A stretch of 62,174 bases of DNA, the filler included, from Hausera hauseri (Eukaryota), in assembly GCA_046269625.1 (NCBI GenBank). It is 11 parts of 11 records of this genome, joined end to end, with 100 filler letters (N's around TTAATTAATTAA, not from the genome) between each part and the next. Parts side by side here need not be neighbours in the genome. Positions count along the whole stretch, not along the records: positions 28,782 to 35,652 come from JBJURY010056329.1; 10 more parts are not named here. One strand, given 5' to 3'. Below the pieces are notes generated by a model. That model made no database searches. It was not told where the DNA came from and was given only the letters and a program-made list of their open reading frames with translations. How positions within the stretch are numbered: the first letter of the stretch is position 1; every line of letters begins with the position of its first letter. Made by a program: the position numbers and the translations under genes. This document shows positions 4,055 through 59,699 of this stretch, piece by piece.

Positions 4055-4154
4055 NNNNNNNNNNNNNNNNNNNNNNNNNNNNNNNNNNNNNNNNNNNNTT
4101 AATTAATTAANNNNNNNNNNNNNNNNNNNNNNNNNNNNNNNNNNNNNNNNNNNN
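4055..4154. other. Artificial contig linker (N44-TTAATTAATTAA-N44). Identical linkers at 8278-8377, 13673-13772, 19991-20090, 24150-24249, 28682-28781, 35653-35752, 44210-44309, 50171-50270 and 55515-55614
   Basis: The same 100-bp spacer, with stops in all six frames, occurs ten times, and sequence character changes abruptly at each one. Confidence 0.98.
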
Positions 4155-13512: not shown

Positions 13513-14299
13513 ATAATTACCAAACAATTGTCTCCTTCACTAATTAAATGATTCTTTTCATCCTTTTTTTGAATTTCCTGACTTTATATTGGCTCTTTAT
13601 TGATTTAACTTTGAATTAAATTTAAACATTAATATTCGTTTAAATTCCTCCTCACATCCCCCTCCTTTAAGANNNNNNNNNNNNNNNNNNNNNNNNNNNN
13701 NNNNNNNNNNNNNNNNTTAATTAATTAANNNNNNNNNNNNNNNNNNNNNNNNNNNNNNNNNNNNNNNNNNNNATGGATCGAGGTAAAATATTTTCTGTTT
13801 GTTCGATAATCCTTCGATTAAGTTGTTTTATAAATGGGATTTTTTGTTTCTTGTTTTTTGAGTTATTACAACTATTTGGGTTGTATAACATGTTGAATAT
13901 GGTAAAGTTTTGAGGTTGTTTTGGTATTCAACTTATTGATGTGAAAATCGGAGCTTTATTTGTGTTGTGGGCCCTATACAAGTCCCGACTATAACAATAA
14001 ATTACGTTCTATTTTTCGATAGTTTTTTGCAGGTGATGTTTTATCGTTCTGGATAAAACAGTTTATGCCTTATTTATCTTTAAGAAATTCAAATCGTAAA
14101 TGCAGGTATTGCTTGCTATATAAGTTATAGTGCATTTTAGAAACTTAGGGTAACTCTAATCACCTTTAAGAGGCGATGGAAACTATAGAATGAAGTTATT
14201 GAAATATGCAAAGTTTATTTAAATAAATACTTTTCGATACGTTTGGCGTTTTCAAAATCGCTGGACCTTGAACTGTTATATCACTTTCGCTTCTCAAAA

Positions 14300-17200
14300 T
14301 TGTTCTTTCCTTCTGGAATTAGGCTGAATTTGAACTACTCTGTTACATGTACCATCCGAATAACGCTTCTGCTCAGCCGCTTCGGTGCGACACAGGGCAT
14401 GTTGTTTTTGCATTATTCAATGTCCAAGTTTCAAGACATCCGCAACAATATTTGTGCCGATATGTTATCTAATCTGACATGGCCTTGTTTGATATTATCT
14501 CCACATACTGGGCAACTATTTTCTTCATCGATATCGTCTCTATCGAGATATATTCTGGGAATAATCTGTATCATCTCGAATAATAGACCATCGTGATCTT
14601 GATATAAATATCCATGGATCATCTTTCATTGTTTATCTATCGAGCTTTTGCGAGGATCGTAATTCACTGATACTAATGTCCAGTCTAAAATAATTTCTTT
14701 GTATAGTTTTGGGACTTTGCCCTCTTTTTGATACTTTTGATGTTGTTTCTTCAACATTATTTTGATTTGTGAGTCCACGTGTAATAACAATTTTCGTGTC
14801 CTTTTTGATTTGAATATTGAGGCTAGGTAATGTCCAATCTTCGTGTTCTTCACATATATGCTTCTTCTAGGGCGTCGCGTATTTTAACCGTTTTTGCGTA
14901 GAATACTGCTTCTTTAATCTTTTGATGACTGCAATATTCTGCCATTACTAACATTTTTATCAAGTCATCCTTAGCGGCATAATGGATATCTTCGTTCGAT
15001 TTTCTTTTCCGCAATATATTTACTTCGGTGAATATTTTCATAAAATCATCTCCTAAATTATTTGGTGGTTTTTCTTATTCTAGAATCTCCTTTAGTTTTT
15101 TTTTCTTTGTGATGTATTCGTTTTTGTTTGCTCTTCAGTATTCTTCGAACTGCTTTGAGGTTTTTCCTTTTGTGATCCTTCTAATTGTTTTGGTTTAGGA
15201 TTTTCTACTATGATTGGATCTGGAGTCCTTGGTTCCTTTTTCTCTAGTGTCTATTGCGTTTTGAAACGTTTCACCCCTTATCTTTTCTTTTGAATAGGTA
15301 ATTATATAGGATATCCATTTCTTTGACGGTCGTATCTCAATTTTCTGTCTACGGCGTATTTTTTGATTTGGAATTTCTGGTATCTTGAATTGAACTGGTG
15401 TTTTCGTGGTTATACCATTTGTTTTAGGTTCAGAACTGAATCCATAGCTAGTGATAGGGCTTTCTTCTATGCTTGGTTGCGTTGTATTGGATCCCTGAAT
15501 AGTTATTCGATAGTTATTTTGTCTTGTTGGTTTAACGATTCTATGTGCACATTATGACCGGTAGTGTTTCCTGTGTTTAGTACTCAACTTTTCTGTAAGT
15601 TCTGCCTTGAGTTTTCGGCATTCCACTCGCGGTCCCATTTTAAAGTCACAATTATATATCGCAACTAATGTGTCTGTTGGCTTGCGGATAGCACTCTATT
15701 AATTCTGACATGTCTGCTGCCCATTGGTTCGAGTATTAATTTGAAACATCATTCTGGAATTGTTTGGTAGCCGATTATTTCTTGTTAGGTTTTCCTGATT
15801 TGCTCTGTGACCATGGGATGTGTTTCCATCTCGCATTCATACGATACTTATGATGGGTAATTCTAATAACTGAACGAGTTCTCGGATTTGATATCCATAG
15901 AGGATACATCCATGTGTATAGTGATTTCGGCCTGAATCTGTTTGACATGTCTGCCATGCATGAGATGTTCCTTTTCGATTCCGTAGTACGTCTCGCACAC
16001 GTTTCGGTCCTATTTCTCGAATTGACACTTCAATCGGAATTCCATTATCCGTCATGTTCTCCACAATTAATTGCTATGATTCTTACATTTCTACTGTACT
16101 GGGACCAGTCTGTACGACTGTACATGTTCGTATTGTTCATTATCTGCGGGTTGTTGTCTAAAGCTTAACGGTGGCAGTTGGATATAAGGAGCGTCGTCGT
16201 ATGTGACCTCAATCATCAATTTTACAGGGAAAACGGCTACACTAAACTCTAATTCAGTTGTACACATGGAAAAGGTACTAAACCTATATTGACTTGCGTT
16301 CTATGGTTGATCTTTTAGCCGATAATATATTTCGCCGTCCGCTAAATGAATATATATATATATATGGTTTGGTGGTAGACTGGTTCGTAGGTGATTAGTT
16401 GTCTTAAAGCGTATGCTTTGACATATTTATCATTTCGCATGGCATACATGTAAATGACCTGATCCTCTTCGGTCATTCCTTTTAGGTTATTAGGAATTTC
16501 ACTCGTCTGATTGAATTTTACGTTTGTTTTTTCATGTAGCTCGTTATTCATCTGTCTATAGATTGACTTCGACTTGGGCTAAACACTAGCATGTTTCTGT
16601 AAGAATTCGTCGATACTGCGTCGCTCGTTTTGGACATTTTCAGTCTCCGTTGCCATCTGAAAAATAAACAGTACGGATTAATCCTAAAAACAAAGTATTG
16701 TTTTAAACCACAGGTTTCGTTTCGGGGCGTCATTACCCTTAATTTCCTTTCTTCGATTTTATGGCGCTTAAACCGGCAATATTTGGCAATTAACCAAAAA
16801 GTCGCAACTAACATTGAGAACGAACGTTTACAGTCCAATGATTGATAAAATTGGCAAGGTCGTTAATCCAGTCGATTTTTATGTAGTGATTGAAAGTAGT
16901 GGTTTCGTTGTCTGTATTTTCGCCTAGGTATGGTACTGCATGGATTTCGTCTAGAGTGCGTAAAGTGCATGTCTTGTTTATCTTTTTCGTATATTTGTAT
17001 TACATAATCCGACTGTGGTTTTTGTATGTTACATTGTATCTGATAACTGTTTTTAAATAATGTCACAATTTGGTTATTGTACAATGTTCGACAGCTTATT
17101 TGAATGTCGTAATATACTTTTTCCACGGAAAACACAATTTTATACTGTTAGGTCAAATATTTAATAGGTATACTTTCTAATTCTCCTTTAGGTATTTTAC

Positions 17201-18040
17201 TTGAAGTGGCGAATTCAGTGATAGTACTTACTTGGGTAATTGGTTTCTTTGTTACCTCAAGTGGAATTTTCCATATCCAGGCTTTCCGATAATAGCTTTT
17301 TAGATAAACACTTGGTTTATTGGGTCGGGTTCTGTATTGTTTTCTGAATTCGTTGCCCATCGGTATTTTACAACATGGATTGGCTCTATCTCGTTCGATG
17401 TAACAATAATTCGCTGAAGGGGTTGGCTTCTTTATTGGTATGAACAGCATGGAAATTTGTCTGTCGCCGATTAATTCTGTTTTGGTTTTTGTCTGGATAC
17501 ATCTATTTTTGATGTCCTAGAAGATCCCGACTATGTTATTATCCAAGATTCGCTTTTGTAGGTCAGTACTTTGGGTAATAATAATTTCCGCTTTGCTTGT
17601 TTTGTTCTGGTATGACCGTTTTGGCTTGCGGATTTACGTTCGCTTGAATTCCATAAAAGTGGTAGTAGTGCATAAGAAATATATTTGTATGTTCGTCCGA
17701 AGTCCAATTCACAACATTTCTGCACTATTCTTTATTGGGAAATCATCGTTATGTTGTTGATTTTGTCAACAGTATTTGAAATTTTACGTGGCCTTTAACG
17801 GATTTACTTGCCCTAAACCAGGCACATGGTTTACTCCAATGCCTATCGTAGACCTTTAACGACTAAGTTTACAATATCTCCATTTTTCTGCATGTTGTTT
17901 CTCGATTAGTTCTTATCGCTTTCCGCTTTGGCGGATTCCGTAGATATCTTCTATGGAGGAATCATCCCAAATCCATTGACTTTTGGTTTTTGGAAGATAA
18001 GCGATTAGTGATAGTGCTAAAACTATCTGGACGTATGATA
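14300..18040 (-). pseudogene. Decayed pol-fused accessory ORF: signal peptide, FN3-like repeats, TM, exonuclease-like domain, conserved unknown domain, RING
   Basis: Signal IVLALSLIAYLPKTKS. CCELDFGRTYKY and QKPQSDYVIQIYEKD resemble the 980-aa ORF. TM-like segment followed by CRFKRHK. Exonuclease-like pieces RIIAINC, GIPIEVSI, ETYYGIEKEHL and GCILYGYQI. C-terminal CPVC...TCPV. Confidence 0.7.
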
Positions 18041-19990
18041 TTAGTCTGGCGATTATAAAAGATTTTGTTCTTTTATCTTGATTTTGACCCCAGTTGTAGC
18101 GTTTGTTTGATCTTATTTCCGTCTTGATAACTTTTTGAATTGATACAACTTTACCGTTCTTATTAATATAGACTGTAGTCGGCGTGGTTTTGGTAATCTC
18201 GTACAGTCCTCTTCCGGTGCGAGTCGGATTTAATGACGTGCCTTTCTTGACTGCTGGGACATAAACCCAATTTCCTTGTTTCAAATTGTGTGGCTTCTCT
18301 TTCTTATAGTACTGTTTTTTAAATTGTTCTTGATATTCACGGATTAACTCTAGCAATTTCCCAACACTTCTGTAACCATGGCTGCAACACTTCCGCGAAA
18401 TTTTGTTTCAAATCTGCAGGATTAATCGTATATGGCGTCATTCCTAAATCTCGGTAATATGGCTTCTCGTTTATATATCATAAAAATGGTGTGAATCCGG
18501 TTGCAGGATGTGGTGTCGTATTTATAGCGAATTGAGTTCCCTCTAAGATTTCATTCAAATCCTTTTGGTCTTTTACGACTATTGTTGATAGAATACGTAT
18601 AACAGTTGCGTTCATACGTTCAACCATTCCATTACATTGGGGAAGGTATGTGGTCGTAGTTAGTCGTTCGATCTCTAATTTCCTCTATCGATCAAGTTCT
18701 AATCGGGAGGTCTGTGCCTGCAGACAACCTTTCTTACTACGGCTTCAGCTAAAGTCTCTACCTTTTGGTCGACTAGTGCTATTAACTCCGCGAAATGAGT
18801 TTGTGGATCAATACAGGTCAGAATATATTTATTTCTGTGGGTTGCAGGTAGTGGTCCTACAATATCCATCGACATAACTTTCATGGGTCTATCTGGTACG
18901 TTTATCGGTTTTAATTCAGATATATAATTTTTCACCCTTTTCTGGTTGCGCATACTTCACAAGCGCTTACCCAATTTTCACATCAGTAAATGCTTGGCCA
19001 ATATTTATTCAGTATTCTTTCCAGCGTCTTCTTCCAAGATGTGCCCAGCTAAATATGAATTGTGTTTTACCACCAGGACTTCCGTTCATAATCTTTTTGG
19101 AATGACTCACTTAATTCCTTTCTTAAGCAGACGATATATCGGTGCGTTTATTTTCGTGTTATCTAGCACAGGTGGCATAGTATCCACACAAACCTAACCT
19201 GTCTTAATTCTTTCTGGATTTGAGGTTCCATACAACCTGATATTTTCAGCAATGATTTATCTGGTCTCGATCCTCCTTCTCCAACTATATGTTCAAAGTA
19301 GGATATTGCATTTTGAGCCCATTTACACGTAAGGTTTAATTTCAATCCAGCTTGCTCTAATCGCATGGGTGTATCGTTAGTATCCTTCAAGCGCTCTTCG
19401 TTCTAGATGCTACCATTACATCGTCTAAGTAGACGAACGTATGATCAACTCCCATTAACATTCTATTCATTATGTGAAAATAACCGATCCAGTTGTTATA
19501 ACGAACGGCATGACATTAAATCCGTATATGTCATCGTGCGTTTTAAACGCCGTTTTATAATGGTTTTCGTCTTCAATTTCTACTTGCCAGAATCCGGACT
19601 GTAAATCCAGAGTGATAAAGCTTCACGGACGACAATGGAAAGGAGTCTTTAATCATGACAGTATTTAATGCTGTATAATCGATGCAAAATCGATGTTTTG
19701 TAGTACCCTTCTTTTTAACCGTAAGTATTGCTGAATATCAAGATCGATAACTCGGCCTAATTATATCTGCTTTAAGCATTCATTCAACTTTTTTATTTCG
19801 GGTCTTAGTGAGTGCGGTGGAGGATACCATTTCGGCATCTTCTGACCTTCAAGTTCAATTTCCTTATTTGAACCCGGTTTTTTAAGCCGAATTGTTAATC
19901 TTAGGGCTTTAACTCTACCAATATCTTCGTCTTGGGCAAAGAGTGATTTATAGCGGCATAACAAGTCATAAAAGCGACAGTAAGATTCAG
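18040..19990 (-). mobile_element. Degenerate Ty3/Gypsy pol (RT, RNase H deleted, IN), same family as the contig-11 element
   Basis: Motifs PPPHSLRPEIKK, RFCIDY, VMPF and LKPINVPDRPMKVMSMDIVGPLP. Colinear with 55760-58350 at both DNA and protein level. Confidence 0.9.
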
Positions 19991-25696: not shown

Positions 25697-26988
25697 CAGC
25701 TATGGCCAAATGTCTGGTAACTGTCAATAAAATGCATCTAATATCAAACATGGAAATAATAGCAATAATACAAACGTCAACTCAATTTTTTTGCTGTGCG
25801 GGTGTAAAAATACTTTGTGTTCTTTATTTACCAGCCTTAACCAATCAAAATTCCGTCAATTCTGACAGAGATTTCTTACATTATGCTTGTTAGTCTGTTA
25901 ACCTGCTATGGAGCTGTCTACTAGTTTAAGAAGCCAAGTCGTTGTGTTACATCAATCTGGTATGCTGCAAGTGCGTGTGGCTTAAATGCTTGGTCTCACT
26001 AAGCTTGTGGTATCATCTACACTGAAGAGGCACCGTGAAACGTGTGATGTTGCAATGCGGCCAAGGAGTGGCCGACCACATGTTACTACACCAACGACGG
26101 ACCGCATTATTCGACGCCGAAGCATTATCAACCCAACCACACCATCAAGGAAATTTGCTGCTGAATTCCAAGTCAGTTCTTATACCATTACACGCCGTCT
26201 ACATGACGAATTTTGACTGAAAAGTTATCGACCAGCAAACAAACCGATGCTCAGCGCCAAAAATATTCGCGATCGTCTTGCATTCTGCATGCTCACAGAC
26301 ACTGGACACCACAAATGTGGGAAACTGTGTTGTTCAGTGATAAGACGCAAATGTTACAGTTTGCTAACGATGGCCGGACATGGGTTAGATGTCCCGTTAG
26401 TGAGTGCTATGATGCTAAATACGTTGTTCCCACGGTAAAGCATTCTGCCAGTGTTATTATCTGGGGTAGTATTTTTGCTTCTGGTGGAGGTAATCTTTAT
26501 TTTCTACCAAAGAACACGACCATGAAAGCCACAAACTATTTCGAAATTCTTCAGGAGTATTTGCGGCCCATGATGACTTGTCGTAATGCTATTATCTTCA
26601 TGCACGACGGAGCTACGTGTCACAAAGCCAAGATGGTGAAAAAGTGGCTTGCGGATTCTGGGGTTGAAATATTGCCTCCGTGGCCTGGAATTTTTCCGGA
26701 CCTCAACCTCATTGAGAATCTGTGGCGCATTTTGGAAGTTAAAGTTGCTGCCCATCCAAGTAGCTTACAACATCTAATCGAAGTGATAAGAAAAGTATGG
26801 TGCAAGGAAGTGTCCATGGAAGTATGCCTAAAGTTGGTGCATGGCATGCCTAACAGAATCAACGAAGTAATAAAAAGGTTCATTTGTCATTTGCATGATC
26901 ACTGTTATATTGGTATGTTTGATATTAAATGCAATTTTTCATAAAATGCCTATTTTTTCACAAGTTACAAGACTTTTGGCCATAATTG
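25697..26988 (+). mobile_element. Full-length Tc1-like transposon (DD34E) with frameshifted transposase
   Basis: TIRs CAGCTATGGCCAAATGTCTGGTAACT and AGTTACAAGACTTTTGGCCATAATTG are flanked by TA. Motifs RSGRP, VLFSD, FMHDGA and PDLNLIENLW. Confidence 0.93.
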
Positions 26989-26999
26989 TATTAACTTTC

Positions 27000-28681
27000 C
27001 AGCACATTTGGTAATTGTCTCAATAAGTCACAACCTAATACTACATCGTTGGTTAATTGTTCCATTATTGCAAATTCGTAATGGAAGGATTGTCCCATAA
27101 TGTGAACTTCTGGATTCCATTTAAACATCGGTCTTGACATTTGTCCAACGGCTCCCATACTTCCGGGATCTTTTGTTGATAGCGGGTGCAGATGTCCTCA
27201 TAACGTTTGCGGAATTGAATCATTTTTGATATACGACGTTTCAGAACCCCTGTCGATTAGGGCGTAAACTTCCCAGTCTTCAGTAGTATCTTTGACAAAG
27301 GGCCTTCTTTCTATTACTGTTCCATAACAATTCGATGCGACTTTGGGTTGCTTAATCGTCGATATTTTATGGCCGCTGCTTCTAATATCTGGGGAATTAA
27401 TTACACTTTCGGTTAGCTGTTTCAATTCTCCATTTGGGTATAGTTCGCTGTTTGCGACGTTCATATCCTCTGCTTCATGGCTACTGATTAGTGGTTGTCG
27501 ATTATTAGCATGTGATTCTAGATTTCGAAACGTTTGCATTCTTTGAGATTTCCCGAGACTGTTGATCTGGTTTCTATATTTCCAGGTACTCTTGGAGAAT
27601 ATAATATTTTGTGATCATCCACTGACTGTCGGCGACAAGGTGCAGAGTTTTCTCTATACTCGTGCATTTTCCGTAAAACTCCATATTGTTTTGTTGCTTC
27701 ATAAGGGTCTTCAAAACTATATGGTCTTGTATAGATTTCTGTTCGATAGGATCTCATCAATTGTTTGTCACAATCTTCATAGATCGGCGCTGTTGGAGGC
27801 AGCACAGGTGGTGGTGACTTTACGACAGAATACGTTTTATGCCTATTTACTTTGGAGACGGCTACTTCTCCCTTAGGCTCGTCATCATTCGAATCGTTCC
27901 GCATTTTGGGTTGAGGAATTTTCGTCCATATAAGAATGTCTTCGTCTTCGATTATGATAGCCAACATGTCGTTTTCTACCCGTTTTCCTCGTAGGCCTTC
28001 ATAAATTTGCCGAATGGCGTTATAATTGCAGTTAAAATGTTACATGAGAATCTCGTCAACGTAGATAATTTGTATCCATTGGATTAGGGCTTTGATTAAT
28101 TATACTAAGAAATAGATCGCTAAAAATCCAGATGCGGCCTGTCCAAAAATGAAAAATCTTCCACAAATTTTGTATAGTATTTCGGTGTTACTCTGATAAT
28201 GGTCTGCACCAAGTAACGATTCCCATTAGATAGCGAGTATCATCTACCACTGCAAATATGGCCCAATTTAATTCGTGTGTACGTTGGCGCGGAAAAGTGA
28301 GAAACTGTCTAAAAGCTTCAACTTTTGTCTATAAATATCCTTCGTTTAGGCGTCCCGAAATTTGTCATCTGTTATTCCTTTTACGAGATTGGTTCCTGTT
28401 AGATTGTTGGTTGCGGCAGTTATGTATTTGCTTGGTAGGCTTACCCAATATGTTTGGCTACATCTGAACATTGGTTCTCCTAAGCTCGCTTTATATTCTT
28501 CTAAAATTGTTAGCTGAGTTGAGTTAGCTAACAGAAATCTAAGAAGACATAATAATTGTAATAATCGTGGTTTATTCTGGTATAAGACGGGTTCTTGTAT
28601 ACAACGTTTTTCTTCGACATTAATTTGTACATTTTTTCTCACATTCATAGGTTAACAGAACGTCGCCTGTGACTCGGCCAA
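27000..28681 (-). mobile_element. Fragment of the env-before-pol Gypsy family: glycoprotein C-terminus, PTAP linker, protease
   Basis: GRVTGDVLL, RCIQEPVLYQN, GIYRQK and FFIFGQAASGFLAIYFL, then PPTAP, then DWEVYALIDRGSETSYI. Colinear with 58800-60420. Confidence 0.88.
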
Positions 28682-28781: not shown

Positions 28782-30121
28782 CCCAACAGTCGACTAATGA
28801 AATGGGCTATGTTGCTCCAACCGTATGACCTTAAGTTTGAATATAAAACGGGGAAAGCTAATGCAAATGCAGACTACATGTCCAGAATACCTGAAGACAT
28901 AGATCAAGAGGAAGAAATAACGGATAAACCAGGCGTTATAGCAGCCATTTGGAGTATTACAAAAGAAAAATCACTGTTACAAAAACAGCAAAATGACAAA
29001 CAGATAAAACAAATCAAAAAATTTCTACAAAAGAAAATGATATCCTGAGATACTAACCTTCATGTACATTTAGAAAAATTTGTTGAAAATTATGAAATAA
29101 AGAATAGTATTATGTACTACAACCACAAAGGAAAACTAGTTGTAGTTGTCCCACAAGACAAAGTTATTATTAATCCAGTATCACAACAGGGTGCTGGAAG
29201 GACATCAGCGATAAAGAACGTTAGGCAGATTAAAAAGAAAATCTTGGTACATGCCGAAGGATGCTCAGGAATGGTGTAAAAGCTGTCCAATCTGTACCAC
29301 AAGGAAGAATACAGTTTCAAAAATCAAAGTCCATCTCAAACCATTAGAATGGCCACCGGCTTCAATGGAATTTTCAGCAATGGACATTCTAGGACTATTA
29401 CCTATGACAGTAAATGGAAACAAATATGTTAGTGTTTGTAGACTTGTTATCCAGATGGCCAGTTGTAATTCCAATATCAGACCAGAAAGCTCAAACTATT
29501 GCTCAGGCATTTGTAGAAGAAATCATATTTAATTACGGAGCACTCTAAATTATTAACAGATCAAGCTCAAAATTTTACAGAAGTTATGGTAGAAAACTCA
29601 AAAATATTTCGGATATTACAGTTGAAAACAACTACCTATCATCCACAAACTAATGGAACAGTAGAAAGATTTAACGGAATTTTAACCAATATGTTGGATA
29701 CGATGGTTATTGAACGACAATATGATTGGGACGAATTCATAAAGCCTTGTCTATTTCAATCAGAAACACGATTCATCCTGCGACAAAAGAAACCTTATAT
29801 ACCAGTTGATTTAGGCGTCAAAAACACCGGTCTCATATTTAAATGATATGGAATACAAAAAATTGCTGGAAGAGAAACCGGGTTATGTATGGAATTTGGC
29901 AGCAAGACACATAAAGATCTGTCAAAAAGAATATAAAACTAGATATTATGAAAAACCCAAACTGCATAACTTCAAACCTGAAGACAAGATTATGTTGCAT
30001 ACGCCTCTGGGTAAGAAATGAAAACTCCAGAACTGGACAGACCAAACAAAGGTCCTTATATGATCCAAAAAGTAAATGAGATTAATATCTACTTAAATAA
30101 AAATAAAAAAATAAAATCGAC
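28782..30121 (+). mobile_element. Degenerate Ty3/Gypsy pol 3' part (end of RNase H, integrase)
   Basis: Motifs RLMKWAMLLQPYD..YKTGKANANADYMSR, WCKSCPIC, MDILGLLP, TDQ, YHPQTNGTVERFN and GPY at 30051. Several stops and frameshifts. Confidence 0.9.
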
Positions 30122-30202
30122 CCCATAAAAGTCCATGCAAATAGATGTAAGCCAGCACCAACGGATTCTAGGATCAGAAATGAAAACCTCGGTCTATTAC
30201 TA

Positions 30203-33145
30203 TTGACAACATTTGTAATATTAACTTTAGTGACCAGTATATCAGCCCAACCCTTGGATGTAAATTACAAAGCCGTACAAGTTGGAAAATACCCTTGCAT
30301 AAAAATTACGGCTAATCGAAATTTAACGACAGACGAATATATACATATATTCATATCGAAATTACCCGTAGTAGAGAAAGCAACACCAGAGAACTGTGAT
30401 TTGTATTATAATCATTCAATACACGTTTGTTGTGGACTCTCATTCGGAGAAACTTATAGGATCCAATACGCAATTGGAAAAAGTGATCACAGCTACAGAA
30501 CATATTTTTCATTTCCTGGCACTACCCATTATTTCCATCGACCTTATTTTCTTATTTCATTTTACACTAAGGTCATGAAAAATGGACCTTGTGTAACAGC
30601 GGAGCCCGATGTTTCAAACACGAGGTATGTTACATTTAAATACATAATATTTGATGGTATAAATAGCATTCACTGTAAACCAACTTATCAAAACCCGTAT
30701 ATATGTTGCCCTATTGTTTTCGATAAAGAGTATACAATATATTATTGGACAACGTATAATGTTTATACATGGTCAAAAACTTCGGATGGTCCAGAGATAA
30801 TAATACGACCTCCAGCCAAGAAAATTACAACTTCAACAAAGAAAACAACTACTTTGATAATACCATCCAGTATAGTAGCTAGTCTAATAATGGAACTCAA
30901 GAAAGTTGTTAAGGAATTAGATACAATTATCCAACCAACAACTCACTCATTAATTATTACAGTAACAGACTTAAAAACTACGAACGTAAAATTCGAATGT
31001 TATTTTAATCATAAAGTAGTCAGCGAAAGAGTGTTAACTCCGGATGAACCAACATCAGCCTGTGCGTCCTTAGAGGCCGATACTAATTATCAGATTATTA
31101 TAACAGAGCTAGACAAAGACGGACAAGTCCTACAAGTTTTCAAAAAGAAAGAGAAAACGTTGAAATTACCTATGATCGTTACAGAAAGAGTTACAAAAAT
31201 AACTACTATACAAATTCAAGAAGAAACTCCTAATAAATACCTTTGGATAATTAGTATATTATGTACTCTTCTAATATTACTAGTCATACTGTTACCCCTA
31301 ACGATATACTGTTTAAAAGTGAGACAGCGAAGACGTAAAATAAGAAAAATAATAAATCAGTTAAAACTTTTAAGAGAAGATTCTCAAAATATGTTAACAG
31401 GGAAAATAAGTGCACCCAAAGATGAAACTCCACGTACTCCCGAACGGCTAATTTGTCCGTCAATCCAAAAGCCATCGGTTAAAAAGCCGACTAATCCAAA
31501 ATGGCAAGATTGCCCATTAAGTCTCCCTAATGAAAACAATCAAACAAGTAAACGACAAGTTTGTCGATCAATAGACACGACCGTGTGTTACTGTACAAAG
31601 ATACAGAATGAAGTTACTAAATTTTTTGCGATCTACAAAAGCTATAAATTAAAAAAGAATACCTTTATTTCCATCTCTAAATCGTCTTGGTTAATATTTG
31701 TTTATTTCCTTTTAGTTCAAGAAGGATCCGAACTTGTGGACAGAACCAAATCTTTTTATTATAATATCATCAGCAATTTGAATGAAACTGACAACAAAGA
31801 TTATGTCTATTATGGTAAGGCAAACCTAATACCCAACAACTTAAAAGGCCATCTTCTCCATCAAAGATCCGGATTGATAATGAAATTGCCTAATACTTCT
31901 ACAAAACTTTCGGATTTAATTGACATTTCCAGCCAAACCACATCAGTCTTTGTGTCTACAGCAAAAGGCCATCTTCAGATAAAGAGTCGAGCACACCTGA
32001 ATGATTTTACTGACACTTTAGATGTCACGGCCTACACCACGATTCGTTTAGATAAGAAGTTTTATCGAAATGTGACCATCATCTTACGGACGTATGGAGG
32101 CCCATCCCCGATAATATACATCGAAGTTACACGAAGAGAGGTCCTCCCTCAGATCGAATATGAAAAACCGATATACCCTTCCAATCTACCTAATCGTGAC
32201 CAGCTCACAACTGGAATATCCTTTTCCAGATTACCGCTGAAATCAAAGGATCAGATAGTAATATTAGCGACAAATTTCGCTTTCCTCCTAACCCCTTTAC
32301 GTAATAAAGAAACAACTCTCGTGGAACTAACCATTATGGATATTGAAGGGGATATCATTTTGGACGAACTCGTTACTCCGCGAGACCGGATAGATAACTA
32401 CAACAGTCTGATTACTGGATTAAAAGAAGTGAATTTAATCGGACAGATAGATGCCTATCAAGTTAGATCATTCATTAGAAAAGAACTCAATGGAAAGATG
32501 ATAATTGGAATCGATATTTACAACACCAACTTACATCTCGATCTTTTTGATACTAACGCAATATTAGGAATTAGGGATCTTTTATATCATCCGGAAATAA
32601 ATCCCGATAAAGCATTGACCCATAAGCAAGTTTTAATGAAATTTAATAACATCGTATATCCTCAACGTACCAAGGAGAAGGCTGCAACAATATTAAAAAT
32701 ATACAATTCTATCGAAGAATATAAAATTGAGGAAGGAAATTTCCAGAAATTACCCATTCAATTTCAATCAAATCAATCAGAATCATCCGTAAATGAAATC
32801 TTATTAGATAATAAACAATTTATGACTCTGGCTTTGACAGATGATTCTAAACCTGAATTGATGGATATTAGTGACACTTTTGAAACATCTACCCTTAACC
32901 AACTAACTACTAACCAATCGCTCTCAACCACTACTTCTAACGAATCCATTACAATCGATCTGACCCAATCACAAAAAAAGAAGAGAACTACCCGTGAAAC
33001 AGTTACTCTTAAGAAAAAGATCCGGAAAGGAAATCAATGGCTGCGGATAGACTCCGACAATTACAGATATACCAATGGCACTCTTGTAACCTATCCGTTG
33101 AAGCTGGGGACAGCTTCGTCTAAGGAGGGAGAAGATGTTCAATAA
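30203..33145 (+). CDS. Intact 980-aa type I membrane protein in the env position: signal peptide, three FN3-like repeats, TM, cytoplasmic REX4/ISG20-like pseudo-exonuclease
   Basis: Hydrophobic N-terminus. FN3-like motifs GLSFGETYRIQY, IVFDKEYTIYY and LEADTNYQIIIT, with a Thr-rich linker. TM at about 31238-31316 followed by RQRRRK. DEDDh-like pattern at about 32250-32715 lacking the ExoI D/E. The frame is open upstream to the integrase motif VHANRCKP. The ORF ends over the PPT/LTR junction. Confidence 0.8.
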   Translation: MTTFVILTLVTSISAQPLDVNYKAVQVGKYPCIKITANRNLTTDEYIHIFISKLPVVEKATPENCDLYYNHSIHVCCGLSFGETYRIQYAIGKSDHSYRTYFSFPGTTHYFHRPYFLISFYTKVMKNGPCVTAEPDVSNTRYVTFKYIIFDGINSIHCKPTYQNPYICCPIVFDKEYTIYYWTTYNVYTWSKTSDGPEIIIRPPAKKITTSTKKTTTLIIPSSIVASLIMELKKVVKELDTIIQPTTHSLIITVTDLKTTNVKFECYFNHKVVSERVLTPDEPTSACASLEADTNYQIIITELDKDGQVLQVFKKKEKTLKLPMIVTERVTKITTIQIQEETPNKYLWIISILCTLLILLVILLPLTIYCLKVRQRRRKIRKIINQLKLLREDSQNMLTGKISAPKDETPRTPERLICPSIQKPSVKKPTNPKWQDCPLSLPNENNQTSKRQVCRSIDTTVCYCTKIQNEVTKFFAIYKSYKLKKNTFISISKSSWLIFVYFLLVQEGSELVDRTKSFYYNIISNLNETDNKDYVYYGKANLIPNNLKGHLLHQRSGLIMKLPNTSTKLSDLIDISSQTTSVFVSTAKGHLQIKSRAHLNDFTDTLDVTAYTTIRLDKKFYRNVTIILRTYGGPSPIIYIEVTRREVLPQIEYEKPIYPSNLPNRDQLTTGISFSRLPLKSKDQIVILATNFAFLLTPLRNKETTLVELTIMDIEGDIILDELVTPRDRIDNYNSLITGLKEVNLIGQIDAYQVRSFIRKELNGKMIIGIDIYNTNLHLDLFDTNAILGIRDLLYHPEINPDKALTHKQVLMKFNNIVYPQRTKEKAATILKIYNSIEEYKIEEGNFQKLPIQFQSNQSESSVNEILLDNKQFMTLALTDDSKPELMDISDTFETSTLNQLTTNQSLSTTTSNESITIDLTQSQKKKRTTRETVTLKKKIRKGNQWLRIDSDNYRYTNGTLVTYPLKLGTASSKEGEDVQ

Positions 33146-34087
33146 TCGGCCTGAATTGGTAAATAATCCAATGAAATACAAAATAAACAATTGAATTTTG
33201 AATGTCAGTGATTTTTATTTGTATTTCATTTAAATTAAATGGATTTTTATTTTCCTGTTATTTTACATAATGAAATGTAAATTTTTCTTGTGATTATATT
33301 TGTATTAGTTGGGTATAAATATCGTAATTTTTATGACTGAAACATAATGCAATTTTCTGGTGACAACGAACGACAATTCGTACCTACCTTTATGATGATT
33401 TACTACAATACTTGTAAGCTTTTTCTTTAATTTTTGTACATTTTTTGGTTATAGATTGTAAATTATATATTTTTAATACATATTAACCTTGATTTTAGTT
33501 CCGTTGTAAAGTATAATATTTAGTAGTAAGGATTAATTAATATTAAAATATTAACCCGTTTTGGTATTCCGGCCCTGTAATCTGCCGGATGTATAAATTC
33601 TAATAAGTAAGGGGTAAACCGTCAGTGTTCCTCCTGAACGGTCCTCACACTAAGGTCAAATAAAACTTGAAGGCAACCCCACAGGTTGCTCCTAAGAATA
33701 ATTAATTTCTGGTCTAGGGGGAAGGAGAAACCCCAGACTATATTTAGTCCTAAGTAAAGAGTATAAGTTTAAGGTCGTAAGACTAATAAATCTTAGACTA
33801 TAAACTTATCAACTAGCTACCGTATTTATATAGCTGATGACAACAATTTTCTGGAAGAGAATTTTTCGTTTAATTCTGTTCGAATTTGTATCAATTAATT
33901 CTTATTTGCCAGATTATTTAACCAATTCTCCACAAATGGCCATGCAATTTTAGTATATTTTCTGTGCAATAAATTTTTAAAGATTTCGATTATAATCCAA
34001 CTTAATTCGGTTTCGATTTCGTATTTAGAATTCTTTCGTTTTCGGTTATTTACATTTGTACATACTTCTTTGTGAACTTTTATAACA
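33136..34087. repeat. Probable LTR sequence (TGTT...AACA) with an inward-facing polypurine tract on each side
   Basis: On the + strand, PPT AAGGAGGGAGAAGA (33122-33135) is followed by TGTT. On the - strand, PPT AGGGAAGAAAAA (34088-34099) is followed by TGTTAT. Contains a TATA box, poly(A) signals and a hairpin cluster. Confidence 0.55.
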
Positions 34088-34099
34088 TTTTTCTTCCCT

Positions 34100-35470
34100 G
34101 AACGGCACTCTCGGATGTGCTCATTGCGTCAGAGGAGGTGCCGCTCAGTCGGTTCATTCTTCTACGTAAGTCCGTTTCCAAATCCGATTAGTCTCTTGGC
34201 GATTGTAAGTCAAAGTTGTAGGATGTAGTGGGTTTTTGGGGCAATATTTCTACTACCTCTTTATTTTCTCCACTGACATAGTACTTCAGTCTGGTAGCTT
34301 CGGCTGTACATACAGGACAAATCGTTTTCCCCTTTTTCAGTGTTCACGTTTCTGAACAGTATCTACAGTACTTGTGAGTACAGTCTTTATTGTCCAATAC
34401 CACGAATTCTTGGTAGAGATTAGCGTCGCAAACTGGGCATTCTTCCTTTTCATCTCCATCTATGTCTACGAGGTTTTCATCAACTTCTATTTATTCGAAT
34501 ACTAGTCCTTTTTTATCTTGATATAAGTATCCATATAAGCGTTTTTGTTTAGGGTCTATAGAACTTTTTTAGGGTCGTCTGATACTGTGACCAAAGTCCA
34601 CTCGACTACCTCTTGTTTATCTAAATCAGGTATTCCAGTTTTCTTGTATTGCCTTTTTAGTTGAATTCGAACTTGAGTATCCACAGGAATTGTCAATCGG
34701 TTAGTACCGTTCATTGATTGGAATATCGGGGTTAGATATCTGCCAACAGTGGTATATTCTCTTGTGTATCCGTTTCCACTTACTATTCTCCTGGGAACGG
34801 TGGATATATGGAATATCGCTTCCTTAATTTTACCCTTGCTATAATATTCGGTCATGACAAGCATTCAGTGGTATTCTTTTACTTGACCAAATTCCGTGAC
34901 TATGATTGGGACATCTTCTTCCCAATTCTTCCAAAGGACGTTTACTTCTGTCTTGAGGGAATTGGATTTAATAGTTTTCCATTGGCCTTCGTTGTTTTCT
35001 TTCGTTTCTTAACTGATCGGTATTTCGGTCTGATCGTCTATCCGTTCATTTGGTGTGGGTCTGTTTGATGCTGATTTGATTTCTTTCGTTTTCTCTTACT
35101 GGTTTTGCTTCCTTTTTGCTAATATATTCTAGGAAGAAGGTTTTTGTCTTTGTCCTCTCGAATTTTCATCTTGAGCTCTACTGGTTAACGGTTTTTGTCT
35201 ACTGTTTGATGTTTCTGCTGAACTATTGTGTATAGTTTCTCGAAATCGATTATATTTTTGAGGTTTGATTTGCCTATAAACTCTTTTTGGAATTTTTATA
35301 TCAAGACTTTCGGATTGTTGTCGGATATCACATTCTATACGGGACTTCTAGGTTTCTACTCATGTTCCCGTCGTAATGAGGCATAGATGTCTTTTAGAAA
35401 CCTTGTTCTTTGACTTGCTGACATCCGTTTAGGAAATTTGAATTCTCCGCCATTCATGGCCTCTAACATA
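34100..35470 (-). pseudogene. 3' part of a second accessory-ORF copy: exonuclease tail, basic region, conserved domain, RING finger
   Basis: MLVMTEYYSKGKIKEAIF...EWTLVTVSDDPKK..YGYLYQD matches MLVMAEYCSHQKIKEAVF...DWTLVSVNYDPRK..HGYLYQD at 14431-15041. RING: CPVC...CTHKYCRYC...CPVC. Confidence 0.8.
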
Positions 35471-35576
35471 ATCTTAAATTGTGATTCACGCGACGCTGAC
35501 GGAAGCAGACACCCTCTTTTCCTCATTATATTATTTTCAACTTGACTTACAACTGCTGGATTCAGACCCAGTTCAC

Positions 35577-35652
35577 GGATGGCATGCCATTATTGTTGAC
35601 GGACATGACGTACGGCAACTCATTGCAGCATTTGAAGAGGCAGCCAATCACA
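35577..35652 (+). pseudogene. TKT: Transketolase fragment at the contig end
   Basis: GWHAIIVDGHDVRQLIAAF matches the animal transketolase motif GWHAIIVDGH. Only about 25 codons are visible. Confidence 0.6.
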
Positions 35653-39200: not shown

Positions 39201-39281
39201 CACCTTTGGACTATAAGAAAAAATTGCGATTAAAATAATAATCGATAATTTTAGGAGAAATTTTATTTATTTGAAATTCAG

Positions 39282-39592
39282 ATAGCAAATACGGACCAGT
39301 AAAGTGCGAAATCTGTTTCGGATTACTGGGACGACATTATGCACTTTTTCGGTGCACGCACATAATGTGCGTTAAATGTGCAGATCGCTGGCTATCGAAG
39401 AGCCAGACGTGTCCCTTTTGCCGGAGGAAGATAAGTTCCTACCAGTGTCGAGGAGCCACAGTAGTGGTCATCCCAGACGATAAAGAAGACGAAGAAGGAA
39501 ATGAAATAGAGGAGGACGATAATGCAGTACCAGAGGACCAGCATGACCTATACGTATATGGACCCAATGGACTTGTGTACATGGCAATATAG
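39282..39592 (+). CDS. RING-finger (C3HC4) exon A1 with acidic tail
   Basis: CEIC...CTHIMCVKC...CPFCRR. Acceptor TTCAG in phase 1. AATAAA at 39596. Confidence 0.8.
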
Positions 39593-40001: not shown

Positions 40002-40196
40002 AATATGTAACAAGAGTAAATTGATTATAGTACTTCGCGAAATTTGGTTTTGCACCCCATATGTGCCCTGATAGGTGGAATTGCGGATTTGTGAGTGATC
40101 ATAATATGATAAGTTTTAATAAATAGAAGTCGTTTTATTAGAAGAATTTATTATTATTAGCAAATGAATACTTGGAATAAACTATTACCATTTAAG

Positions 40197-40648
40197 GAAA
40201 CGGATACAGAAATGGAAGTGAAAACAGAATGGAACCCGAAAAATGTCCCATCTGCCTTGAGGAAATGATGGAGGAAAGAACCACACTCCCATGTAAACAT
40301 AGCTACTGCAGTCCCTGCATTAACATTTGGTTGGGGGAGCACAGCAATTGTCCTTGTTGCCGAAGAGATTGTACCTTCTGTTGGGTATGTTCCAAATTAG
40401 TAGCCGAGGACTTGGCCACCCTATCGTGCAGACATGTATTTTGTCAGTCGTGTATCCTCGAATATTTAGCGTGCTGCCAATTGTGCCCCTACTGCTTAGA
40501 AACAGTGGATTTTTATATCACAGAGGGGGTGATTACCTATTTGAATTTTAATGGACAATCCTCTATAATGCTAGTGATTGACGAAGATGATGGCAGTTGG
40601 CCAGAAGCGTGGAGAAATCCACAACCATATATATTAGACATAAACTAA
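40197..40648 (+). CDS. Tandem double-RING exon C1
   Basis: CPIC...CKHSYCSPC...CPCCRR, then CWVC...CRHVFCQSC...CPYC. Acceptor TTTAAG in phase 1. AATAAA at 40661. Confidence 0.85.
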
Positions 40649-43470: not shown

Positions 43471-43671
43471 AATATGTAATGAAAGTAAATTGATTATTGT
43501 ACTTCGCGAAATTTGGTTTTGCATCCCATATGTGCCCTGACAGGCATAATCGCGGATTTGTAAATGATCATAATATGATAAGTTTTAACAAATAGAAGTC
43601 GTTTTATTAGAATTTATTATTATTAGTAAATGAATATGGAAAATATTTAAAATAAACTATTACCATTTAAG

Positions 43672-44132
43672 GACACGGACACAGAAATGGAAGTGAAAAC
43701 AGAATGGAACCCGAAAAATGTCCCATCTGCCTTGAAGAAATAATGGAGGAAAGAACCACACTCCCATGCAGGCATAGCTACTGCAGTTCCTGTATTAACA
43801 TCTTGTTGGGGGAACACAACAATTGCCCCTGTTGCAGAAGAGATTGTACATTCTGTTGGGTATGCTCCAAACTAGTAGCCGAAGACTTGGCCACCCTATC
43901 GTGTAGACATGTATTTTGTCGGTCATGTATTCTCGAATATCTGGCGTGTTGTCAAATGTGCCCTTATTGCCTGGAAACAGTAGACTTCTACGTCATGGAA
44001 GGAATTATTACATACTTGAATGTTGACAACCGCCCATCCATAATGCTAATGATTGATGAGGACGACGGCAGTTGGCCAGAGGCATGGAGAAACCCGCAGC
44101 CCTATGCAATATTAGACATAGATTGGAATTAA
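43672..44132 (+). CDS. Tandem double-RING exon C2 (exon D2 begins at 44187 and is cut by the contig end)
   Basis: Paralog of C1 with many synonymous differences. Phase-1 acceptor and AATAAA after the stop. Confidence 0.85.
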
Positions 44133-44309: not shown

Positions 44310-46176
44310 ACAATGATTTCAACCAACTATTTCAGAACATTTAAAGGAAACGTAAACAAAGCATGCTATTACAAATATCAAACATGGACATGCACAGTAA
44401 TAACATTAAATGAATTTGCAACCGCTGTAGAAACAATATTAGTTTGCCTCTTTCATTATCTTTCTCCCTTTTTTTTTTCTTTTTTTTTTTTTATGCTAAG
44501 ACAACCTGAACTGATGAGTCTTAATTCACTGCACGACTGCACTGTTCCAAATTGATGCCTTTTTCACCCGAAATGTACCACTGCAGTTCGGATGTCCTAC
44601 TGTTGTGAAAACAAGTAAGGCGCGAAACCTTACGGGCTCCCGTCGTCGAAGCATGGCGTGCAGGGCTCCCACAGCTCGGTTGCTAACAGGCGACGTTTTC
44701 ACTATAACTGCTCCCAAGGGTGTTTCGTCTGGTGCAGAATAAAGCCACGCTCCAACTGATGTTTTACCAGCCTTTAATCTTCTTTTTTGGCCGCAAACAA
44801 CGTGAAAACTAACAAATACAGATTAAATACATGTTAGCAGATTAACATTCACAACCACATTAACGCTTACAAAAAAAATAAATAAAATAAATGTATAACA
44901 TACCGTGTGCGCCTTCTGACCAAACGTTTAGGAGATGTTATTGTCCATATCTTCCGTCTTAAGTAAACTCCGACGTAACTTATTGTCTGAGCGTCTTTAG
45001 CATCTTCTAGAAGCTTAGGTCTGCTATCGGTCACGTGATCAGAGCTTAACCATGTATTGGTGCAATACACTTTTTCACCAACAGGTGTCAGTAATACAAC
45101 ATATTAAATTAAATTCTCGTATTTACAAAGGAAATTAAACCACAAATAAACAAACAAACACCTTTTCTTTCTGCGACAGCTACACTGCCACCAAAATTAC
45201 AAAAGATTTGTATTCACCATATCAAACAAAATACAATCTTGTAATTGTCCATAAATTAACAATCAACCATCAAATTAAGTTACAAATAAAATTATTGAAT
45301 TACAGTCTTAAGGATCACATATTTGTGTTTTGAGTTATCATTTGTACTCTTTTACAATAGTTTAGGAGTCATTTTCAACCAATACCACTATTTTCTGAAC
45401 TGGTCTCTCAAGAAAAGATAGTTTTTTCAAACGTTCACCGTTCCTTCCCAAATCTGTTTGTCCGACTTGGATCTTAACCTTTCGCACCAAACCATCATCG
45501 TCTTTACTTGTTTCAACTACCTTTGCCAATTTCCATTCATTTCTAGGAATATTGTCCTCCTTTACAATGACTATATCCCCCACCTGTACATTTCTTTTAG
45601 GTGTATGCCACTGTTGTCTTAAGCTGATGTTGGTTAAGTATTCTTTGCGCCATCTGCTCCAAAACTGCTCCGTCAAATATTGCACTTTCCGCCACCTCTT
45701 CCTGGTGTACAAATCCTCTCTGATGAATCTACCAGGAGGCGGGAGTGCCACTGACTCCTTCATAGTGAGCAAATGATTAGGCGTTAAAGGTTCAACACTT
45801 TTTGGATCAATGATTGTATCTGTAGTGAGTGGACGATGGTTCACAATGGACATGGCCTCATAAAAGAAAGTTCTCAATGAGTTGTCATCCAATCTTCCTG
45901 TGGCTTGTGCCAAGACTGAACTCATGACATTCCTAACTGTCCGGATTTGACGTTCCCAAACACCTCCCCGGTGACTAGCTTCAGGAATGTTCATTTGGAA
46001 GTCGCATTGATTTTTAGCCAGATAGGTAGAGATTCTGTCTTTATCCAACTCCTGTAAACTCCTTTCAAACTCGTTCTTAGCTCCAACAAAGTTTGTGCCT
46101 TGGTCAGAACGAATCTGTCTCACTGCACCTCTGATTGCAATGAAACATCTCAACGCATTTATAAATGCATCAGTGG
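44310..46176 (-). mobile_element. BEL/Pao LTR retrotransposon 3' fragment: integrase ORF 45362-46153, PPT, 3' LTR from 45184 downward
   Basis: Motifs IRSDQGTNFVGA, ASHRGGVWERQIR, PLTPNHLL, FWSRWRKEYL and ERPVQKIVVL. On the - strand TTTTGGTGGCAG is followed by TGTA at 45184. Confidence 0.93.
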
Positions 46177-46208
46177 TTTAAATATTTGTCATTTTCTCTG
46201 CACTCAGG

Positions 46209-54040: not shown

Positions 54041-55759
54041 GTATGTTCATAAGCTAACTTTATCATATATTTCCATGAATAAATGTCATTTCAGGAACTG
54101 AAAGATTTGTTTTGGAGTTTGGAAGGAAACAGTCACGCCTTAGTAAAGTGATTATTTTTACAAATTCATTTCTGGGAACATTTGCTACGAGTGAGCACTT
54201 TTCCGGGGACATTTCCAGGGACAACATTCAGAAGTAAAATTGTACATATGTACGCACTCATGCACACATATTTAACTATGTACTTAACATTTTGTTGTTG
54301 CAAGATCTGAATTAAGCTACAGGGAAAATTAATGTATTTAGTGATGACAATAAAACTTGATGCATGAAAGCTGGCATAAAAAAATGTTGTATCCTTGTCT
54401 GGCCTAACGCATAACTAACAGATCTAATAAAGTAAATTTAAGGACAGTTTTCAGTGGTTCCAAACAAAAATAGATGGTCCTACTCCCAAGTTTAGATGTA
54501 GTAGTCAAAGAACTTCTGTGTTTCTTTATCTCAGTGTGTTATTTTGAAAGCATTTTTGCAATTAAACACTGCACAAGACAAACTTTTCATTTCTCAATAA
54601 TTAAATAACAAACACGGCTTATCAAATCATATAACTTGCGCTACAACAGAATAAATGAAAGCAACTGAACACAAAGCTGACAGCGATGCAAAGAATGTCT
54701 ATTTTCCGCACTTCTGTTTTTCAACTACACTTTTAACTAATGGCATCTATTGGCCACTTTTCCCCAGGACTGCAGAGTCGGACCAAAAATCTCAGACTCG
54801 GATTCCAACACCTTTATATCTGGTGCCTCCAGCACAGATGCCTTTTGTATATATCGATATAACTGAAAATAAATTATAAATGTACTTATTATATTTTTCT
54901 TATGTCAATTGGACACACGTAGTGTGTAAGATAAGGACATTAACAATGGACTCAGAGGGCAAATTTTCAAAAATAAAAAAACTGTAAAATGCATGTTAAA
55001 AAAATAGGGCATCCCATGATCAAAATATCAGATGTTTGTACAATCTACAATGGCACAAATTTAGAAAAAAACCGATGTAAAATATTAAACCATTTTTCCC
55101 ATGCTGTCTTCATGTAACTTTTTAATCTGCTTCATGACCTATTGTTTTTTTTTCTCATGCTTACATTTGTGCAACAAGTACTAAATTAAAATGAATGATG
55201 TGGAGATTCACCAGCAGTGAAAAAGGAAGAACTTGCATTTCATCAACTTGTGACCATTTTGAAAGCATTGCCTCCATTTTATCAAGAAAAGAAACAAATA
55301 AGGCTGTTGCTGCCAAAGCAGCTCTGCAGATGTGAAAACGTTCATTTCTACAGAGAGAAGAGTTGGAATTCATTGTGATCTTGGTTTGGTCTAGTAGTAA
55401 GCAGTTAGCTTAAGGTAGAAATGACAATACATACAATGCAGATGAATTAAATCACTGCATTCCTGCAAATCTAGACATTACTGGAAGCTACAAAAAATGA
55501 TTTTACCAAAGAATNNNNNNNNNNNNNNNNNNNNNNNNNNNNNNNNNNNNNNNNNNNNTTAATTAATTAANNNNNNNNNNNNNNNNNNNNNNNNNNNNNN
55601 NNNNNNNNNNNNNNCAGCAGACATACCAGAGGGCGGGTATTTTAAAACCCTACCCCGGCTGGGCGGTGATGTGGACGGTGTGGATGCGCACTCAGCCAAC
55701 ACGGTCGTCTGCCTGTATGGGTCAATTTTAATGATGTGTATTTAATGGCTACTGGATAG

Positions 55760-59680: not shown

Positions 59681-59699
59681 GGCGTTCTACGTCCGATTT

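Follow-up and report, generated by a model that had tools for sequence, protein, structure and literature searches.

An intact cargo frame with a predicted membrane anchor and an ISG20-like pseudo-exonuclease behind the integrase of a decayed Ty3/gypsy-type element of Hausera hauseri

The window analyzed here (62,174 nucleotides of the Hausera hauseri assembly GCA_046269625.1) is made up of contigs joined by N linkers. One of these contigs (positions 28782-35652, JBJURY010056329.1) carries the 3' 6.9 kb of a long terminal repeat (LTR) element, the 5' part of which lies off the contig. In this element a decayed pol gene is followed by an open reading frame (ORF) of 1012 codons, referred to below as the cargo frame. 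Because the second-longest open frame in the 62 kb has 361 codons, the cargo frame is not a product of chance. The features of the locus are as follows (positions along the window, amino acids counted in the 1012-codon frame).

28782..30106 (+): decayed pol, with the RNase H end and the integrase zinc finger, core and GPY part (Pfam)
30107..33145 (+): cargo frame P0001, 1012 codons from stop to stop, with the stop codon at 33143-33145
30122..30157 (+): integrase C-terminal motif PIKVHANRCKP, in the cargo frame (from sequence)
30182..30247 (+): signal-peptide-like stretch, aa 26-47 (hydropathy 2.2; hydrophobic to about aa 50)
30248..31171 (+): three Cys-containing beta repeats, about aa 48-140, 145-235 and 270-355 (weak but concordant signals)
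31238..31312 (+): predicted transmembrane (TM) helix, aa 378-402 (hydropathy 2.9; hydrophobic stretch aa 375-407)
31313..31729 (+): linker, aa 403-541, a cytoplasmic tail and an AT-rich stretch open in frame (open-frame probability)
31689..31715 (+): splice-acceptor-like site, a pyrimidine tract and TAG, where the two modules meet (site ranking)
31730..32140 (+): double-stranded beta-helix (DSBH) domain of AlkB/2-oxoglutarate (2OG)-oxygenase type without the metal triad, aa 542-678 (AlphaFold2 and fold search)
32252..32743 (+): ISG20/REX4-like DEDDh pseudo-exonuclease, aa 716-879 (fold search and alignment)
32744..33142 (+): Ser/Thr-rich tail with a basic patch, probably disordered (26% S+T)
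33122..33145 (+): polypurine tract, then TGT at 33136, the likely 3' LTR start (sequence scan)

The surroundings of the cargo frame support its assignment to a multi-copy Ty3/gypsy-type LTR element rather than to a neighboring host gene. Upstream of it are matches to Integrase_H2C2 (E-value: 2.5e-4), rve (E-value: 5.2e-4) and rve_3 (E-value: 9.4e-4), all under the curated Pfam cut-offs and in three different frames. They are preceded by an RNase H end motif read by eye, giving the RNase H to integrase order of Ty3/gypsy elements. The pol next to the cargo frame is broken into at least 6 open pieces in 441 codons. Its integrase is 33-46% identical to the closest one in the window, which belongs to a protease, reverse transcriptase, RNase H and integrase element on contig 55615-62174. 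The motif PIKVHANRCKP, which we take to be the end of the GPY/F module, lies within the cargo frame; a profile search of this region gave no GPY/F-module match. As pol is in pieces and a frame change separates the GPY half of the integrase tail from the VHANR half, a fusion to integrase is not translatable from this copy as it stands. At the 3' end, the purine tract and TGT at 33122-33136 are the only + strand candidate found by scan in the contig, and the stop codon of the cargo frame falls within the first 10 bases of the likely LTR. An LTR, primer binding site (PBS) and gag were seen in a relative (L008, below) and not on this contig. Two public runs, X1 and X2, neither recorded as RNA, share 0.55 and 0.15 of the words of the stretch. 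Contigs from both (6854 of X1 and 872 of X2) align to contig 28782-35652 at 80-99% identity, with those of X1 falling in all 30 bins. Since the aligned contigs number in the thousands and are mostly below 95% identity, the stretch belongs to a high-copy repeat family.

The initial annotation of this locus had described a 980-aa ORF that is open to PIKVHANRCKP, ends over the polypurine tract and belongs to the element. Both ends and the element membership are borne out by the integrase pieces, the tract at the stop and the copy number. The length is not, as 980 counts from a TTG at 30203 and the frame has 1012 codons from 30107; its earliest in-frame ATG is codon 157. The proposed fusion to the integrase tail stands insofar as the motif shares the frame, and falls as a translatable fusion in this copy.

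The N-terminal half of the cargo frame resembles a receptor. A putative signal cleavage site between SISA and QP was read by eye. The Cys repeats that follow are likely fibronectin type III (FN3)-like: all three carry a motif resembling the FN3 C-terminal strand (Leu-x-Pro-x-Thr-x-Tyr type), Atlas places FN3 clusters first for the ectodomain (0.90, 151 features), a five-row repeat profile has fibronectin as its top match in PDB (E-value: 0.11-0.15) and the Pfam match is to Fn3_Dep-1_3rd (E-value: 0.036). PDB sequence searches with this ectodomain and with that of a membrane protein from the related locus L003 gave nothing below an E-value of 0.17, and PHROGs gave nothing usable. A single-sequence AlphaFold2 model of the whole ORF has a pLDDT of 33, with the TM helix as its only confident part, and fold searches with it gave no usable match. 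Right behind the helix, a net charge of +8 forms a basic stop-transfer. The signal-like stretch, the three repeats and the predicted helix agree with the initial annotation, with the FN3 identity no more than suggested by the matches above. A third hydrophobic stretch (aa 519-537), weak and missed in the initial annotation, owes its hydrophobicity to the acceptor pyrimidine tract translated in frame. The N-terminal hydrophobic stretches of P0002 and P0025 also resemble acceptor pyrimidine tracts read in frame and may mislead TM predictors.

The membrane protein does not appear to be an Env fusogen, with neither an F-type nor a gB-type family match. No fusogen family was found in the cargo frame by Pfam at E-values up to 10; for a sister element in the window, the same library does detect pieces of a gB-type Env. 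The sole RX[KR]R of the frame sits behind the TM helix and not in the ectodomain. The sister element (contig 55615-62174, - strand) is a decayed GAG-ENV-POL element with a gB-type fusion protein upstream of its protease, where PF24664 is matched in three pieces above cut-off. Contig 26990-28681 (- strand) is 68% identical to this element over 1.7 kb. Because the sister element has its fusion protein between gag and pol, the post-integrase gene is probably accessory rather than an env replacement. The lack of a fusogen signature had been observed before; the accompanying idea that the gene occupies the env slot does not agree with the sister element.

The cytoplasmic half is a member of an unnamed DSBH-DEDDh family with active and dead members. 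An exhaustive search of 1.84 billion representatives gave 43 matches of 160-662 aa, all within aa 542-948, and no match to aa 1-541. Word-based searches with the whole ORF and, among shorter proteins, with aa 1-430 found no homolog, and two queries of a viral contig collection found no relative. Twenty-seven of the 43 matches (the longer, family-like ones) were aligned with aa 542-888 of the cargo frame, and AlphaFold2 on this 28-row alignment gave a confident model (pLDDT 86.6, pTM 0.83). The DEDDh domain matches ISG20L2 (phmmer with the cargo frame, E-value: 1.2e-4; family profile, E-value: 5e-29; Foldseek of the nuclease model, E-value: 2e-9), and its fold superimposes on ISG20 with Z 17.6 (root-mean-square deviation 2.5, 159 aligned). 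The ISG20/REX4-like pattern with replaced acidic residues was therefore well seen in the initial annotation, and the suggested structural check places the fold at aa 716-879. The region before it, left unnamed there, is the DSBH domain (aa 542-678). It matches ALKBH6 (Z 12.0, root-mean-square deviation 3.0, 134 aligned), Ofd2 and ALKBH1 best, at Z 11-12. Because cupins are matched as well, an AlkB ancestry is not established. A PDB sequence search with the DSBH profile gave no match; a fold search of a viral library gave replicases, presumably through the AlkB domains of plant RNA virus replicases.

Both cytoplasmic domains are probably non-catalytic in this copy, as judged from the residues at their active sites. 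The DEDDh columns D-E-D-H-D read A-N-D-Q-K, with 4/5 catalytic residues replaced, although the last two columns depend on the alignment. No conserved HxD/E of a metal triad was found in the 28 DSBH rows (any such triplet occurs in 4/28), nor was the 2OG-binding terminal Arg of the AlkB type. The one conserved His of the family (23/28 rows) is Ser here. All DEDDh catalytic residues are kept in 17/28 rows, and the remaining 11/28 are pseudo forms, which so appear to persist in several lineages. In the tree, P0002 groups with the cargo frame (98/96) on long branches, and a single clade of dead forms is not settled. The relatives carry similar unaligned tails behind the nuclease domain.

The genomic setting of this family was examined with a 14-row alignment of catalytically intact members as the query, and 15 loci were recovered from the metagenome contigs of two data sets. 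In the longer loci, the DSBH-DEDDh gene is the last of a cassette that encodes RING proteins, TRAF with a MATH domain and coiled coils. Across L003-L008 these cassettes comprise a RING-H2 protein, a full TRAF (RING, zinc finger, MATH), a C3HC4_3 RING protein and several coiled-coil ORFs, followed by the DSBH-DEDDh gene. As L008 reads exonuclease, LTR, PBS, gag, the family is LTR cargo. The L008 LTR (3033-4640) is about 1.6 kb long with short terminal inverted repeats; the tract before it is C-rich and not purine-rich, and the PBS behind it is, we assume, of the tRNA-Lys type. In L001, a polypurine tract and TGT lie about 100 bases behind the stop of the exonuclease ORF. L003 opens (1-1512) with a 504-aa signal and TM protein that has an integrase-tail-like motif at its start, its own Met before the signal and no Pfam match; it sits three ORFs upstream of the L003 exonuclease gene. 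The ORFs of the related loci commonly start 0-4 bases behind a YAG (21/32, compared with 29/1020 for other ATGs), and as these 32 starts come from related loci of two data sets and are not independent, the Fisher value overstates the difference.

Two further decayed elements in the window bear on the organization of the cargo frame.

13773..19990 (-): decayed paralogous element, with pol, signal stretch, Cys repeats, DSBH-exonuclease gene and RING gene (sequence, profile)
34087..35652 (-): 3' end of a second decayed element with a RING-finger gene, tail to tail with the first (tblastx)

The pol of the paralogous element is 70-73% identical to that of contig 55615-62174. Its signal stretch (17916-18407) is in frame with the integrase tail, an arrangement shared by the cargo frame, this paralog and, by a similar motif, L003. 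The Cys repeats of the paralog match repeat 1 of the cargo frame (shuffle p <= 0.005), and its DSBH gene is recognized by the family profile (iE-value: 1.9e-6). This gene begins with its own acceptor and ATG at 16656, so that the membrane and nuclease genes are apart. The second element, which adjoins the cargo frame's own, matches the paralogous contig (tblastx E-value: 1e-27) and has a purine tract at 34099-34088 (seen by eye, not flagged by the scan) and TGT at 34087. A second exonuclease tail opening this minus-strand neighbor was considered; its profile match was weak (iE-value: 0.4-0.9) and is not relied on.

The place at which the paralog has an acceptor and an ATG is the place at which the cargo frame keeps an acceptor only, and the ORF is on this comparison a join of two formerly separate genes. 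The acceptor at 31715 ranks first of the 72 YAG sites inside the ORF, and homology to the stand-alone family begins just behind it, at aa 542. There is no in-frame ATG behind the acceptor until 31880 (aa 592), inside the DSBH domain, and the nuclease half is thus without a start of its own. A start from a flatworm spliced leader, presumably ending in AUG, was considered and dropped, as the acceptor is out of phase with the frame. The linker has a chance of staying open of 0.0003 over aa 430-545, 0.02 over aa 500-545 and 0.14 over aa 512-537. One X1 contig skips 1371 bases in frame (31732-33104), almost exactly the DSBH, nuclease and tail module (aa 542-1000); this match is weak, with a 24-base side.

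The intact state of the cargo frame between broken flanks hints at selection. There are no breaks in its 1012 codons, whereas pol has at least 5 in 441 codons, the paralog cargo at least 14 in 800 and the neighboring element at least 11 if all of it is coding. By a post hoc calculation, 4 to 7 breaks would leave the ORF untouched with a probability of 0.009 to 0.0002. Among the 12 best-supported of 52 indels between copies, none is in the ORF, 5 are in pol and 7 lie behind the stop. At many of the listed ORF positions this copy carries substitutions relative to most aligned contigs, and it is thus neither the majority form nor a collapse of copies onto it.

The model that we favor, with not quite an even chance of being right, is that the cargo frame encodes a membrane-anchored RNA-binding adaptor, carried as 3' accessory cargo of a Ty3/gypsy-type element. 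In working copies, Pol would extend at its C terminus through the cargo frame. The signal within that frame would route the Cys repeats into the lumen of the endoplasmic reticulum, where signal peptidase would free them from integrase, and the TM helix would halt transfer, so that the repeats face outward and the pseudo-nuclease stays cytosolic. For the DEDDh and DSBH folds (aa 542-879), both dead, we infer RNA binding; they would hold RNA ends without cutting them, such that element RNA or particles are tethered and shielded at membranes. Fusion would be carried out by a separate gB-type Env, coded upstream of pol as in the sister element, and the repeats would serve in attachment or as a receptor decoy, candidate roles that the initial annotation had put forward together with RNA-binding counter-defence. 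A bolder and rather doubtful extension is that a group of enveloped invertebrate retroelements carries behind integrase, much as complex viruses do, a spliced accessory cassette (an FN3-like receptor mimic, TRAF, RING ligases and an AlkB-fold/ISG20-like nuclease), of which two genes were welded here into a new type of receptor with FN3 on the outside and a doubly dead RNA enzyme on the inside, with selection keeping the frame after the death of pol, possibly as a host gene.

Several observations weigh against the adaptor model. The DSBH-DEDDh gene is a separate ORF without an in-frame TM segment in 15/15 loci, and no fused relative is present among the 43 matches; a DSBH-profile search for longer proteins also gave no fusion among 10 matches of 322-668 aa, a weak test in which 8000 candidates were scored. 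Membrane and nuclease parts are therefore separate genes in all relatives examined, contrary to the initial view of one protein as the family design, and the search proposed for integrase-FN3-exonuclease fusions returned none among matches of 160-668 aa or in the 15 loci. The L003 membrane protein has no detectable similarity to the cargo frame (BLASTP best E-value: 1.6). The high rank of the 31715 acceptor counts against a single product, as does the likelihood (0.02-0.14) that the last 26-46 linker codons are open by chance. If aa 519-537 were a second TM segment, the nuclease fold could be placed outside. There is no in-frame ATG before the signal and this copy is unable to make the Pol fusion, no aligned X1 or X2 contig covers the whole stretch, and the upstream env is inferred for this family from a sister element of 33-46% integrase identity.

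Many of these points fit separate expression, in which the membrane protein is made from the Pol frame, the DSBH-pseudo-nuclease is made from a message spliced at 31715 with a start in an upstream exon, and the single frame is incidental, a stop having been lost. We regard this as the less probable account, though a serious one. The acceptor is placed where homology starts, relatives begin their ORFs close behind a YAG, the paralog has acceptor and ATG at the equivalent place and the X1 contig lacking aa 542-1000 is weakly in agreement. However, the relatives supply their own ATG behind the acceptor and the cargo frame has none until aa 592, and both the frame match and the open junction would have to be chance.

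Host domestication would also explain an unbroken frame in a dead element: the host would have kept the cargo frame as a receptor-like gene, with translation beginning in a host exon upstream or at a non-AUG codon. The contrast in breaks and the departure of this copy from most aligned contigs are in its favor, but no start codon or strong acceptor precedes the signal and the ORF is multi-copy, making this explanation unlikely. More improbable again is a chimera, in which the contig mixes copies of different age through assembly or template-switch recombination, and the contrast of a broken pol with an unbroken cargo frame, or even the join, does not reflect one history. A high-copy repeat covered by short contigs, with no spanning piece and at best 0.55 of words shared with a run, is where such an artifact might be expected; yet each flank has an exact X1 match at low depth, without a single difference over 465 and 240 bases, X2 pieces are 95-96% identical without gaps across the nuclease and tail part, and the gene order agrees with the paralog. 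An ordinary host receptor or exonuclease gene merely neighboring the element, the refuting case named in the initial annotation, is scarcely credible and largely ruled out, for although FN3 and REX4/ISG20 folds are common among host genes, this ORF lacks introns, shares its frame with the integrase tail, stops at the polypurine tract and is multi-copy, and its nearest relatives sit in LTR cargo cassettes.

Elsewhere in the window, RING-finger ORFs at 39275-39592, 40196-40645 and 43671-44129 (+ strand) belong to a duplicated unit of 3.5 kb (78% identity over 1.4 kb) and may be cargo of the same kind. By motif, we take the remains at 4458-5789, 26207-26944, 45365-46177 and 1-3655 to be a Polinton-like polymerase B, a Tc1 transposase, a BEL/Pao integrase and another gypsy pol. 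The window as a whole looks like repeats of one animal genome.

Little is known of the accessory genes that LTR elements of invertebrates carry, and additional ORFs with a TM segment are usually annotated as env. The post-integrase membrane protein described here is not a recognizable fusogen, and an unnamed family of DSBH and ISG20-like nuclease proteins turns out to be LTR cargo. These genes are testable candidates for how LTR elements process or shield RNA and interfere with host immune signaling. The survival of an unbroken frame while its element has decayed also makes this locus a candidate case of a gene born by fusion and domestication. Exonuclease and TRAF/RING cargo are known from other LTR elements, as set out below, but we found no description of the DSBH-DEDDh family, of an FN3-like membrane protein sharing a frame with integrase or of the two fused as an unbroken frame in a dead element. 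No FN3 or AlkB-DEDDh cargo of LTR elements was found in the literature searched, and Repbase, subscription papers, the original Burro paper and supplements may hold such cases. The available text of PMC6338049 and PMC10680173 contains nothing closer.

Among cellular and viral proteins, the nuclease domain is like ISG20, ISG20L2 and REX4 in fold and family profile, and differs from them in its replaced catalytic positions, extra DSBH domain and membrane anchor. The DSBH domain shares its fold with AlkB Fe/2OG dioxygenases and differs in having no HxD...H triad or terminal Arg. Poxviruses encode soluble or membrane-bound cytokine-receptor decoys with FN3 domains; the short FN3-like ectodomain on a mobile element recalls these by analogy only, with no sequence match.

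Among retroelements, GAG-ENV-POL errantiviruses with an HSV/gB-type Env are known from Nematoda, Bryozoa and Platyhelminthes (eLife 2026, PMC13524379). From what is available of that paper, they resemble the sister element of the window in gene order and Env type, which would point to a host among these three phyla; the words fibronectin, exonuclease and accessory are absent from the main text of the paper. The giant planarian gypsy elements Burro/GYPSM1 encode a 5,000-aa polyprotein in over 30 kb, carry RING, MATH/TRAF and coiled-coil cargo and have env in frame between gag and pol; the polyprotein may instead include their accessory ORFs (Arkhipova and Yushenova 2019, PMC6431247). According to the portion of this source available, the likeness to L004 and L007 lies in the cargo and that to contig 55615-62174 in the env-before-pol order. 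Burro cargo is inside ORF1 or upstream, whereas that described here lies behind integrase as acceptor-led genes, and no exonuclease or fibronectin domain is named for Burro in that portion. The LTR elements Juno and Vesta of bdelloid rotifers have an ORF3 behind pol that encodes a DEDDy/RNase D-like exonuclease with its catalytic residues kept and no TM segment or coiled coil, and small TM-bearing ORF3s are also listed for rotifer LTR elements (Rodriguez et al. 2017, PMC5408684). The initial impression that the cargo is unlike any described in LTR elements thus fails for exonuclease ORF3s (PMC5408684) and for RING/TRAF cargo (PMC6431247, as far as available), and holds, within the literature searched, for the FN3-like membrane protein, for the DSBH domain and for an exonuclease of DEDDh type. 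The protein described here differs from those of Juno and Vesta in being DEDDh/ISG20-like and catalytically dead, in lying behind an AlkB-type DSBH domain and in being joined to a membrane protein with a TM helix. As in those elements, the gene for an exonuclease of the DnaQ-like 3'-5' type lies behind pol, where env is usually found.

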